The notes under the pieces: model-generated
Databases searched by the model: none
What the model saw: only the letters and a program-made list of their open reading frames with translations
What the model was told of the DNA's origin: nothing
Assembly (NCBI RefSeq): GCF_003334405.1
Contig: NZ_QOWM01000001.1
Source of the DNA: Escherichia coli
GTDB lineage: Bacteria > Pseudomonadota > Gammaproteobacteria > Enterobacterales > Enterobacteriaceae
Length of the DNA stretch: 64,000 nt
Reading direction: 5' to 3' (one strand)
Shown: positions 14,795 through 46,243 of the stretch, piece by piece
How the letters are laid out: every line of letters starts with the position of its first letter
Numbering within the stretch: the first letter of the stretch is position 1
Program-made: the position numbers and the translations under genes

Positions 14795-15586
14795 ATGGGT
14801 AAACTCACGGGCAAGACAGCACTGATTACGGGCGCATTGCAGGGAATTGGCGAAGGAATTGCCAGAACTTTTGCACGTCATGGCGCGAACCTAATCTTGC
14901 TGGATATCTCCCCTGAGATCGAAAAGCTGGCGGACGAACTGTGTGGTCGTGGTCATCGCTGTACGGCGGTTGTCGCCGATGTGCGTGACCCGGCGTCGGT
15001 AGCCGCAGCTATCAAACGCGCGAAGGAAAAAGAAGGGCGCATTGATATCCTGGTGAATAACGCAGGCGTTTGTCGTCTGGGCAGTTTCCTCGATATGAGC
15101 GATGACGATCGCGATTTCCATATTGACATCAATATTAAAGGCGTATGGAACGTCACGAAGGCGGTGCTGCCGGAGATGATTGCCCGCAAAGATGGTCGCA
15201 TTGTGATGATGTCTTCAGTCACTGGTGATATGGTGGCCGATCCTGGCGAAACGGCGTACGCCTTAACGAAAGCGGCGATTGTTGGCCTGACAAAATCGCT
15301 GGCGGTGGAGTACGCGCAGTCTGGTATTCGCGTTAACGCCATTTGCCCGGGATACGTGCGCACACCAATGGCGGAAAGCATTGCCCGCCAGTCGAACCCG
15401 GAAGATCCAGAGTCGGTGCTGACTGAAATGGCGAAAGCAATCCCGATGCGTCGCCTCGCCGATCCGCTGGAAGTCGGCGAACTGGCGGCCTTCCTCGCAT
15501 CGGATGAATCCAGCTATTTAACCGGTACACAGAATGTGATTGATGGCGGCAGCACACTGCCGGAGACGGTTAGCGTCGGTATCTGA
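14795..15586 (+). CDS. ucpA: short-chain dehydrogenase/reductase UcpA (263 aa)
   Basis: ATG at 14795 with AGGAG upstream; Rossmann motif TGALQGIGEG and catalytic YxxxK (YALTK) present. Confidence 0.9.
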   Translation: MGKLTGKTALITGALQGIGEGIARTFARHGANLILLDISPEIEKLADELCGRGHRCTAVVADVRDPASVAAAIKRAKEKEGRIDILVNNAGVCRLGSFLDMSDDDRDFHIDINIKGVWNVTKAVLPEMIARKDGRIVMMSSVTGDMVADPGETAYALTKAAIVGLTKSLAVEYAQSGIRVNAICPGYVRTPMAESIARQSNPEDPESVLTEMAKAIPMRRLADPLEVGELAAFLASDESSYLTGTQNVIDGGSTLPETVSVGI

Positions 15587-38502: not shown

Positions 38503-39918
38503 ATGAAAATCAAAACTCGCTTCGCGCCAAGCCCAACAGGCTATCTGCACGTTGGCGGCGCGCGTACTGCTCTTTACTCCTGGCTTTTTGCACGTAACCA
38601 CGGCGGTGAGTTCGTGCTGCGTATTGAAGACACCGATCTTGAGCGTTCCACGCCGGAAGCTATCGAAGCCATTATGGATGGCATGAACTGGCTGAGCCTG
38701 GAGTGGGATGAAGGTCCGTACTACCAGACCAAACGTTTTGATCGCTACAACGCGGTGATCGATCAGATGCTGGAAGAGGGCACTGCTTATAAATGCTATT
38801 GCTCTAAAGAGCGCCTGGAAGCGCTGCGCGAAGAGCAAATGGCGAAAGGTGAGAAGCCGCGTTATGACGGTCGCTGCCGCCACAGCCATGAGCATCATGC
38901 TGATGATGAACCGTGTGTTGTACGTTTTGCTAACCCGCAGGAAGGTTCTGTTGTTTTTGACGATCAGATCCGTGGTCCGATCGAGTTCAGCAACCAGGAA
39001 CTGGACGATCTTATTATCCGCCGTACCGATGGTTCCCCAACCTATAACTTCTGTGTGGTTGTCGATGACTGGGATATGGAAATCACCCACGTTATCCGTG
39101 GCGAAGACCATATCAACAACACGCCACGCCAGATCAACATTCTTAAGGCCCTGAAAGCGCCGGTGCCGGTTTACGCGCACGTTTCTATGATCAATGGCGA
39201 TGACGGTAAAAAACTGTCCAAACGTCACGGGGCAGTCAGCGTAATGCAGTATCGTGATGACGGTTATTTGCCAGAAGCACTGCTGAACTATCTGGTGCGT
39301 CTGGGCTGGTCCCACGGCGATCAGGAAATCTTCACTCGTGAAGAGATGATCAAATACTTCACTTTGAATGCCGTCAGCAAATCTGCCAGTGCGTTCAACA
39401 CCGACAAGCTGCTGTGGCTGAACCATCACTACATTAACGCGCTGCCGCCGGAGTATGTTGCTACTCACTTACAGTGGCACATTGAGCAGGAAAATATCGA
39501 TACCCGTAACGGCCCGCAGCTGGCTGATCTGGTGAAACTGCTGGGCGAACGCTGCAAGACGCTGAAAGAGATGGCACAGAGCTGCCGTTATTTCTACGAA
39601 GATTTTGCTGAGTTCGATGCCGACGCCGCGAAAAAACATCTGCGTCCGGTAGCGCGTCAGCCGCTGGAAGTGGTTCGTGACAAACTGGCCGCGATTACTG
39701 ACTGGACCGCTGAAAACGTTCATCACGCTATTCAGGCGACGGCGGATGAGCTGGAAGTGGGTATGGGTAAAGTTGGTATGCCGCTGCGTGTCGCCGTAAC
39801 CGGTGCGGGGCAGTCTCCAGCACTGGATGTTACCGTTCACGCAATTGGTAAGACCCGCAGTATCGAGCGTATCAACAAAGCGCTGGATTTTATTGCTGAA
39901 CGCGAAAATCAGCAGTAA
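38503..39918 (+). CDS. gltX: glutamyl-tRNA synthetase (471 aa)
   Basis: Class I motifs: HIGH-type ([13 protein letters not shown]) and KMSKS-type (KLSKR); 471 aa. Confidence 0.97.
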
Positions 39919-43417: not shown

Positions 43418-43424
43418 CAGGCGT

Positions 43425-43457
43425 AAAAAAACCGGGGAATTATCCCCGGCTTTTTTA
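43425..43457. terminator. bidirectional intrinsic terminator between pdeA and nupC
   Basis: Hairpin ccgggga-attat-tccccgg flanked by A7 and T6. Confidence 0.7.
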
Positions 43458-43466
43458 TGTATGGTC

Positions 43467-44669
43467 TTACAGCACCAGTGCTGCGATTGACGCAGACAGC
43501 ACACTCACCAGGGTAGAGCCGTAAACCAGCTTCAGACCGAAGCGAGAAACCACGTTACCTTGCTCTTCATTCAGGCCTTTAACTGCACCTGCGATAATCC
43601 CGATTGAAGAGAAGTTAGCGAAGGAAACCAGGAACACAGAGATGATGCCTTCAGCACGCGGAGAGAGCGTGGAAGCAATTTTCTGCAGATCCATCATCGC
43701 AACGAACTCGTTGGAAACCAGTTTGGTCGCCATGATACTGCCCACTTGCAGTGCTTCACTGGAAGGAACACCCATCACCCATGCAATCGGATAGAAGATG
43801 TAGCCCAGGATGCCCTGGAAGGAGATGCTGTAGCCAAACCAGCCAGTAACGGTGGCAAACAGTGCGTTCAGCGCGGCGATCAGGGCGATAAAGCCAATCA
43901 GCATCGCGGCAACGATAATGGCAACTTTGAAACCTGCCAGAATGTATTCACCCAGCATTTCGAAGAAGCTCTGACCTTCGTGCAGGTTGGACATCTGGAT
44001 GTTTTCTTCACTGGCATCAACACGGTAAGGATTGATCAGCGACAGCACGATAAAGGTGCTGAACATGTTCAGTACCAGCGCAGCAACGACGTATTTCGGT
44101 TCCAGCATGGTCATGTATGCACCAACGATGGACATCGACACGGTGGACATTGCCGTGGCAGCCATGGTGTACATACGATTACGGGAGATTTTGCCGAGGA
44201 TATCTTTATAGGCAATAAAGTTTTCAGACTGACCCAGAATCAGGGAGCTGACGGCGTTAAAGGATTCCAGTTTGCCCATGCCGTTGACTTTGGAGAGCAG
44301 GAAACCAATTGCGCGGATGATCACCGGCAACACGCGAATGTGCTGGAGAATACCGATCAGTGCAGAGATAAAGACGATTGGGCACAGCACTTTCAGGAAG
44401 AAGAATGCCAGGCCTTGATCATTCATGCTACCAAAGACGAAGTTAGTCCCTTCGTTGGCAAATCCGAGCAGTTTTTCGAACATTTCGGAGAAGCCTTTCA
44501 CGAAGCCTAAACCAACGTCGGAGTTCAGGAAGAACCACGCCAGTAACACTTCGATAACAAGCAGTTGAATAACATAACGGATACGAATTTTTTTGCGGTC
44601 GCTGCTTACCAGCAGTGCGAGAATCGCAACAACGGCAAGTGCCAGTACAAAATGAAGGACGCGGTCCAT
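43467..44669 (-). CDS. nupC: nucleoside:H+ symporter NupC (400 aa)
   Basis: Start at [14 protein letters not shown]...; concentrative nucleoside transporter family; the track ORF is extended 13 codons. Confidence 0.93.
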
Positions 44670-44934
44670 ATTTGCTCCAAATATGAGGCAGGTTAAATTT
44701 CCGTGCACATTCTATGTAACATGGTTAAGGAAAACGAGATCTGACACACACTATAATGACGTCCTGTGACAGGCTTCAAAAATAGTGATCTGTCATACAT
44801 TTCTGCTATGTTGTGTATGGAAGCTGAAAGTTATGTAAATGTGCTAACATTAAACATAACCATAACATTCAAGTCATCAATCTTTTCGTAGTCATAATCC
44901 TGGTCTATCAGAGAAATCACCACAATCCATTTAA

Positions 44935-44956
44935 ATGAATTTGATAATCATTCTCG
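44935..44956 (+). promoter_or_regulatory. putative Fur box in the mntH promoter
   Basis: gataatcattctc matches the 3' part of the Fur consensus GATAATGATAATCATTATC with one mismatch; about 50 bp upstream of the mntH start. Confidence 0.4.
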
Positions 44957-44970
44957 TTTGGTATAGCATG

Positions 44971-44992
44971 AAACATAGCAAAGGCTATGTTT
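44971..44992 (+). promoter_or_regulatory. MntR operator palindrome upstream of mntH
   Basis: Perfect inverted repeat AAACATAGC-aaag-GCTATGTTT about 15 bp upstream of the mntH start codon. Confidence 0.7.
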
Positions 44993-44995
44993 TAG

Positions 44996-46243
<1,248 letters not shown>

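Follow-up and report, generated by a model that had tools for sequence, protein, structure and literature searches.

The mntH promoter region of Escherichia coli carries a Fur box, a predicted MntR operator, and the overlapping small open reading frame ypeD

RESULTS AND DISCUSSION

Locus, coordinates, and cross-species alignment

The site analyzed here is located in the nupC-mntH intergenic region of the E. coli chromosome, within a 64,000-nucleotide stretch (the window) to which all positions refer unless other numbering is given. In window orientation, the RefSeq gene order is pdeA, nupC (-), mntH (+), ypeC (-), and yfeO (-). The identity of MntH was confirmed with NCBIfam model NF001923 (622.6 bits versus a cutoff of 430). 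A 701-nt query across the site was present in 5425 of the 5426 complete genomes of E. coli. In enteric bacteria, manganese is imported chiefly by MntH, and the mntH promoter joins iron, manganese, and peroxide inputs, which makes it relevant to oxidative-stress defence and to survival under host metal withholding. The features of the region are listed in Table 1.

The alignment of K-12 with positions 44884 to 45024 was gapless, with a single mismatch at 44962 (T in the window, C in K-12), so that K-12 coordinates could be converted exactly to window positions. The conversion was window = 45005 + (2512706 - x), where x is the coordinate in NC_000913.3; U00096.2 numbering equals NC_000913.3 minus 1978, an offset that was checked on the mntH coordinates. 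The T at 44962 lies in the promoter spacer, just 5' of the -10 hexamer, and is C in most E. coli as well as in K-12; the exact 66-mer of the window was found in just 137 of 5399 records.

For comparison across species, a genome collection was scanned with MntH, which yielded 80 loci from approximately 25 genera of Enterobacteriaceae with 89 to 99% protein identity, and the 300 nt upstream of each mntH ATG were aligned. Loci of Yersinia, Serratia, and Erwinia lay beyond the 80. Mean identities (Table 1) were calculated against the window for 75 non-Escherichia species.

Table 1. Features of the mntH control region, with mean identity to the window in 75 non-Escherichia species
Feature	Position	Strand	Mean identity	Basis or remark
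Weak mntH-direction transcription start sites (TSSs)	44819, 44858	+		Kim et al. 2012, supplementary table
Candidate OxyR site, ATAa-N7-CTAT-N7-ATca-N7-CcAT	44894..44930	.		Directly 5' of the -35 hexamer
ypeD (b4819), 29 codons	44935..45024	+		K-12 RefSeq; 2512687-2512776 (-) there
Fur box, GAATTTGATAATCATTCTC	44937..44955	.	0.92	15/19 versus Fur consensus; within ChIP-exo peak
-35 hexamer TTGATA, predicted sigma-70	44941..44946	+	1.00	Consensus scan; inside the Fur box
-10 hexamer TAGCAT, predicted	44964..44969	+	0.92	Consensus scan
MntR operator (assigned by sequence), AAACATAGC-AAAG-GCTATGTTT	44971..44992	.	Left arm, 1.00; AAAG spacer, 1.00; right arm, 0.88	9-4-9 palindrome
mntH Shine-Dalgarno (SD) sequence AGAGG	44994..44998	+	0.93	6 nt 5' of ATG 45005
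mntH CDS	45005..46243	+		RefSeq annotation; 412-aa ORF; Nramp-family Mn2+/H+ symporter

The mntH promoter and its Fur box

A consensus scan of positions 44600 to 45100 returned a sole sigma-70-like promoter in the direction of mntH, with 17 nt between its two hexamers and a score of 9/12. Across species, the -35/-10 spacing stays at 16 to 17 nt despite indels. The predicted -10 hexamer varies solely as TA-n-n-n-T (TAGCAT, 54; TAGCTT, 11; TAATAT, 6; TAACAT, 5; TAGTTT, 3; TAGCCT, 2), as would be anticipated for a -10 element. From this promoter, we infer a transcription start at approximately 44976.

The -35 hexamer is embedded in a Fur box. Fur sites were scored as the number of positions, out of 19, that matched the 19-bp consensus GATAATGATAATCATTATC, and the box at 44937-44955, which contains GATAATCATTCTC (44943-44955), was one of two hits that reached 15/19, a score that nothing else in the 64-kb window exceeded. 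In total, 29 sites in the window scored 13/19 or better. The first-pass annotation had pointed to a Fur-box-like sequence 5' of the palindrome described below, and this score bears it out. Of the 80 cross-species loci, 69 hold a single exact copy of the string TTGATAATCATTC.

Published occupancy and expression data agree with the assignment. Gao et al. 2023 reported a K-12 Fur ChIP-exo peak for mntH (P75, 2510767-2510798). The peak is labelled "Intergenic," and its coordinates are thus those of U00096.2; they convert to window positions 44935-44966, an interval comprising the Fur box, the -35 hexamer, and the spacer. The comparison with Fur footprints that had been proposed for this site places Fur on the predicted box in vivo. 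In delta-fur mutants, mntH was derepressed in all nine strains tested (log2 fold change, 1.16 to 3.30), and it is one of the 36 genes that make up the core Fur regulon of these strains. The information-theory model of Chen et al. 2007 placed a 19.9-bit, two-site Fur cluster at -56 from mntH, which corresponds to window position 44949. Fur-dependent repression of mntH also has promoter-lacZ data behind it.

Upstream transcription starts and a candidate OxyR site

A search for the main mntH TSS found no entry near mntH in Cappable-seq supplements, and the table of Kim et al. 2012 held just weak upstream starts and antisense starts. The two weak starts in the direction of mntH are those at 2510914 (11 reads, 5' UTR of 186 nt) and 2510875 (5 reads, 147 nt); their upstream 51-mers match window positions 44769-44819 and 44808-44858, respectively. 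Both starts lie upstream of the Fur and MntR operators, and for transcripts from them the repressors would be roadblocks, not occluders. The same source lists a minus-strand TSS at window position 45017 (13 reads), 12 nt inside mntH, which was assigned to nupC with a 348-nt leader. Transcription from that start would yield an antisense RNA covering the start of mntH and both the MntR and Fur boxes.

Upstream of the promoter, a candidate OxyR site was recognized with a consensus of four ATAG-type elements at 10-bp spacing (ATAGnTnnnAnCTAT-N7-ATAGnTnnnAnCTAT). Its score of 13/20 is not distinctive, since approximately 11 sites reach 13 or more in the window. The candidate is conserved in part (0.61 overall; CTAT and ATC are invariant), and CTATCAGAGAAATCA (44905-44919) forms a conserved block across genera. 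Position, partial conservation, and the statement in reviews that the promoter has an OxyR site, rather than the score, support 44894-44930 as a candidate OxyR site.

A palindrome matching MntR-described promoters

An exact search located the palindrome AAACATAGCAAAGGCTATGTTT at 44971-44992, and a repeat finder resolved it into two 9-nt arms (44971-44979 and 44984-44992) that are 100% complementary and separated by 4 nt. It begins 2 nt past the predicted, conserved -10 hexamer and ends 1 nt before the SD sequence and 12 nt before the mntH ATG, which substantiates the earlier description of a perfect 9-4-9 palindrome just 5' of the mntH start. The same description had called the Fur and MntR operators adjacent; they are close, but they do not abut, because a 15-bp gap (44956-44970) that contains the predicted -10 hexamer separates them.

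Perfect inverted repeats with 9-bp arms are not rare. They occurred at approximately 13 loci in the window, mostly as GC-rich terminator-like stems, versus approximately 2.8 in shuffled sequences, so the significance of this palindrome rests on its position, its motif match, and its conservation. With up to three mismatches, the palindrome pattern was unique in the window, versus 0.03 occurrences expected.

The core ATAGC-N4-GCTAT recurs in K-12 in the promoter regions of dps (AAGTATAGCACCGGCTATGTGT, upstream), mntS (AGATATAGCACAGGCTATATTA, at the rybA/mntS 5' end), and mntP (GAATTTAGCCAAAGCTATGTTT and AGACATAGCTTAGGCTATATTA, two upstream sites). These palindromes match the mntH site at 14 to 15 of 18 arm positions, and matches as good were found elsewhere only twice in approximately 340 kb of other loci. 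Common to all of these sites is (A/T)TAGC-N4-GCTAT(A/G)T. The perfect 9-bp palindrome is confined to the mntH site, and the spacer differs everywhere. The gene dps is reportedly under MntR control. As cited, Waters et al. 2011 described repression of mntS and activation of mntP by MntR; the mntP sites, approximately 360 to 420 nt upstream of the ATG, mediate activation rather than repression. The cognate regulator gene, mntR, lies outside the window; in the annotation of E. coli K-12, it is b0817.

According to reviews, mntH is repressed by both Fur and Mn-MntR and induced via OxyR, and each of the three proteins has its own site in the promoter. In a chromosomal reporter study, Mn2+ plus Fe2+ served to repress the mntH promoter. 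The assignment of 44971-44992 as the putative MntR operator is supported by these observations. Full-text literature searches for the operator sequence retrieved only unrelated papers with AAACATAGC and no match with ATAGCAAAGGCTAT.

Two further occurrences of TAGC-N4-GCTAT were considered as auxiliary MntR operators and rejected. The one at 45142-45154 lies in mntH, in the conserved stretch ASFGY; it has no matching flanks and is not kept at synonymous sites in other species, which indicates a by-product of coding. The one at 15000 is in coding sequence, and its flanking arms do not match. Both were taken as chance occurrences.

Conservation of the operators and alternative readings of the palindrome

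The left arm and the AAAG spacer of the palindrome are invariant in the 81 sequences, save for one spacer change in one of them. The right arm is GCTATGTTT in 21 sequences, GCTATATTT in 44, and GCTATATCT in 12, and the remaining 4 have gaps in its last two aligned columns. The perfect 9-bp palindrome is limited to Escherichia, Citrobacter, Salmonella, and Kluyvera (21/81), and the variation in the right arm defines the conserved recognition core as AAACATAGC-AAAG-GCTAT(A/G)T. Other MntR sites vary in the left arm and spacer, unlike the strictly conserved left arm and AAAG at mntH. This is stricter than MntR recognition seems to need; an additional constraint is likely, probably that of the transcription start region. 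In Trabulsiella odontotermitis TbOT1.10 (L030, approximately 1451-1500), a 16-nt tandem duplication (ATATTTCAGAGGCAGA) directly follows the MntR core and repeats the end of the right arm plus the SD sequence.

Among six E. coli alleles chosen across the identity range, changes were seen in the promoter spacer, at one inner position of the -10 hexamer, and at 44970; none of the six had a change in the palindrome. A single E. coli strain differs within the Fur box, where position 44949 is A instead of C.

The number of inverted repeats and of partial Fur matches in the window might suggest that AT-rich intergenic DNA produced both the palindrome and the Fur-like string by chance. This has next to no probability. 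Both elements are near-invariant over approximately 25 genera, while mean identity is 0.53 in the promoter spacer outside the Fur box and 0.61 in the SD-to-ATG spacer (0.57 in the nupC-proximal half of the intergenic region); Fur occupies its box in vivo, and the palindrome motif is common to other promoters described as MntR controlled. Conservation and the ChIP-exo data refute the chance reading.

It is also very unlikely that the palindrome functions in the mntH leader as an RNA hairpin (through stability, attenuation, or translational control), instead of or besides being a DNA operator. A fully transcribed palindrome would indeed form a hairpin of -14 kcal/mol (z = -5.2), with a free SD sequence immediately 3' of it, and the weak TSSs at 44819 and 44858 would place it in the transcript. 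From the predicted main start, however, the left arm would be mostly untranscribed and the leader unstructured (z = +0.9). Compensatory changes were zero across the 81 sequences: at 44974/44989, 21 species have C-G and 60 have C-A, and at 44972/44991, 12 species have A-C. The AAAG loop is near-invariant, which a hairpin loop need not be. The lack of compensatory change indicates that selection acts on the half-sites in the DNA and on the promoter rather than on a helix in RNA, and with covariation absent, an RNA hairpin as the primary function was rejected. An Rfam scan of 44400-45300 (E <= 1) gave no match, and a promoter/terminator scan gave no terminator-like site.

Integrated control of mntH and comparison with known systems

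We consider it very probable that the region is the mntH sigma-70 promoter with Fur and MntR repressor sites, plus a probable OxyR site. Since the Fur box contains the -35 hexamer, Fe2+-Fur bound at 44937-44955 would, under iron sufficiency, deny RNA polymerase access to the promoter. When manganese is sufficient, Mn2+-MntR, a dimer of the DtxR family, would bind 44971-44992 and block initiation, given that the palindrome lies 2 nt past the -10 hexamer and over the predicted start. During peroxide stress, OxyR probably activates from the conserved block at approximately 44894-44930. At the outset, the two sites had been described as consistent with known dual iron and manganese control of mntH, and that reading agrees with the ChIP-exo peak, the delta-fur derepression, the reviews, and the core motif in dps, mntS, and mntP.

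The Fur motif of mntH is said to overlap the -35 hexamer, and the MntR inverted repeat is said to lie between the -10 hexamer and the ribosome-binding site, a layout that agrees with the one in the window. The E. coli and Salmonella mntH promoter described by Patzer & Hantke 2001 and Kehres et al. 2000 and 2002, as cited, is the same locus, with Fe-Fur and Mn-MntR repression and OxyR activation. Nothing substantive differs between that promoter and the window, which departs from K-12 by the one spacer base at 44962. The Fur/MntR (and OxyR) control region of mntH is therefore already known and ordinary, in line with the first-pass annotation, which claimed no novelty; the sole addition concerns ypeD (see below).

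Related systems share parts of this arrangement. The Salmonella sitABCD promoter (Ikeda et al. 2005, as cited) belongs to another manganese importer and is likewise repressed by Fur and MntR through separate sites, but sitABCD is a different operon and is absent from the window. In Yersinia pestis, mntH encodes an Nramp manganese importer that is repressed via a Fur site, as here, according to a review summary of Perry et al. 2012; by that account, Yersinia lacks MntR, and Fur takes both the iron and the manganese responses, whereas the window has a predicted dedicated MntR operator. The yybP-ykoY Mn2+ riboswitch, which controls mntP in E. coli, similarly responds to manganese in cis from the 5' region of a manganese transport gene. 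It works through RNA, in contrast to the mntH region, where neither an Rfam family (44400-45300) nor covariation was found.

The small open reading frame ypeD

The K-12 annotation includes ypeD, an ORF that spans the Fur box, the promoter, the MntR box, and the mntH start, and whose first base (44935) is also the first base of the interval originally singled out for analysis. In many strains, PGAP annotates from an internal ATG at 44968 an 18-aa "hypothetical protein" (WP_418134935.1; L001, 3369-3425); the name "protein YpeD" is also used. YpeD came to light through profiling by Ribo-RET plus Ribo-Api, and its conservation in Salmonella and Citrobacter koseri was reported (Stringer 2021). In its translation, LIIIL corresponds to TTG-ATA-ATC-ATT-CTC, that is, to the Fur box, and KHSKGY corresponds to the MntR box.

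A reading in which the conserved block encodes a functional small protein, YpeD, with the operator likeness secondary, draws on the RefSeq annotation, on the detection by profiling, on upstream TSSs whose transcripts would include the ypeD ATG, and on the presence of that ATG in 72 of 81 species. The frame itself, however, is poorly kept, and we regard this reading as extremely unlikely. The 29-codon ORF is retained in only 12 of the 81 species; a stop follows codon 11 in 40 species and codon 8 in three Escherichia lineages, six species have neither ATG nor GTG at the ypeD start, and 12 species read the palindrome in a different frame (LNIAKAIF instead of KHSKGYV). Within E. coli, an allele with TAA at ypeD codon 9 occurs as an identical 66-mer in 727 complete records. 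Conservation at ypeD codon positions 1, 2, and 3 was 0.78, 0.84, and 0.90, the reverse of a coding pattern, compared with 0.85, 0.83, and 0.73 for mntH codons 1 to 10. At ypeD codons 8 to 10, which lie in the promoter spacer, where the DNA is free to vary, residue changes are non-conservative. ypeD has no NCBIfam match, and no Shine-Dalgarno sequence precedes its ATG.

Because its ATG precedes the -35 hexamer, ypeD could be translated only from transcripts other than those of the main promoter, and the starts at 44819 and 44858 would supply them. With the frame not conserved and third positions the most conserved, the reported conservation looks like that of operator DNA. Most likely, ypeD is a by-product: operator DNA that is open by chance and translated occasionally from weak upstream transcripts. 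This case advises caution in small-protein annotation, in that amino-acid conservation by itself should not count as evidence of a functional peptide; for YpeD, it is explained by the transcription factor sites embedded in the ORF.

In the Escherichia-Salmonella-Citrobacter clade, which has the perfect 9-bp repeat, an ORF of 24 to 29 codons usually extends from the Fur box to within mntH. A scenario can be drawn for this clade in which translation of ypeD through the hairpin, on long-leader mRNAs from the weak starts at 44819 and 44858, tunes mntH translation independently of the main promoter, and in which ypeD translation may end at or inside the mntH start; we judge it quite improbable.

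Other elements in the window

Toward nupC, a second K-12 Fur ChIP-exo peak with no target gene listed (P76, 2511044-2511073) converts to window positions 44660-44689, at the nupC start codon; no match of at least 13/19 to the Fur consensus was present in that interval. A perfect 8-3-8 inverted repeat, CATATTTG-CTC-CAAATATG, at 44667-44685 spans the nupC ATG and SD sequence and is exact in 53 of 80 species, and its predicted RNA fold was not significant (z = -0.9). A second strongly conserved block of the intergenic region, nearer to nupC (44727-44815), is presumably the nupC CRP/CytR control region; it has CRP-like half-sites (TGTGA-N6-TCAAA, 44765-44780) and, on the minus strand, a promoter-like site (44779-44750).

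On the other side of nupC, the pdeA (yfeA)-nupC gap is just 49 nt in the window (43418-43466). At this junction, K-12 carries IS186C and FORC 064 an IS421-family element; the strain of the window has no insertion. Farther away, two identical terminator-like hairpins, AAAAAAGCGCCTTTAGGGCGCTTTTTT, occur 156 nt apart at 37903-37929 and 38059-38085. The second of them lies just downstream of the minus-strand genes for tRNA-Lys(ttt) and tRNA-Val(tac) (38090-38244), which are the only two tRNA genes in 37000-39000.
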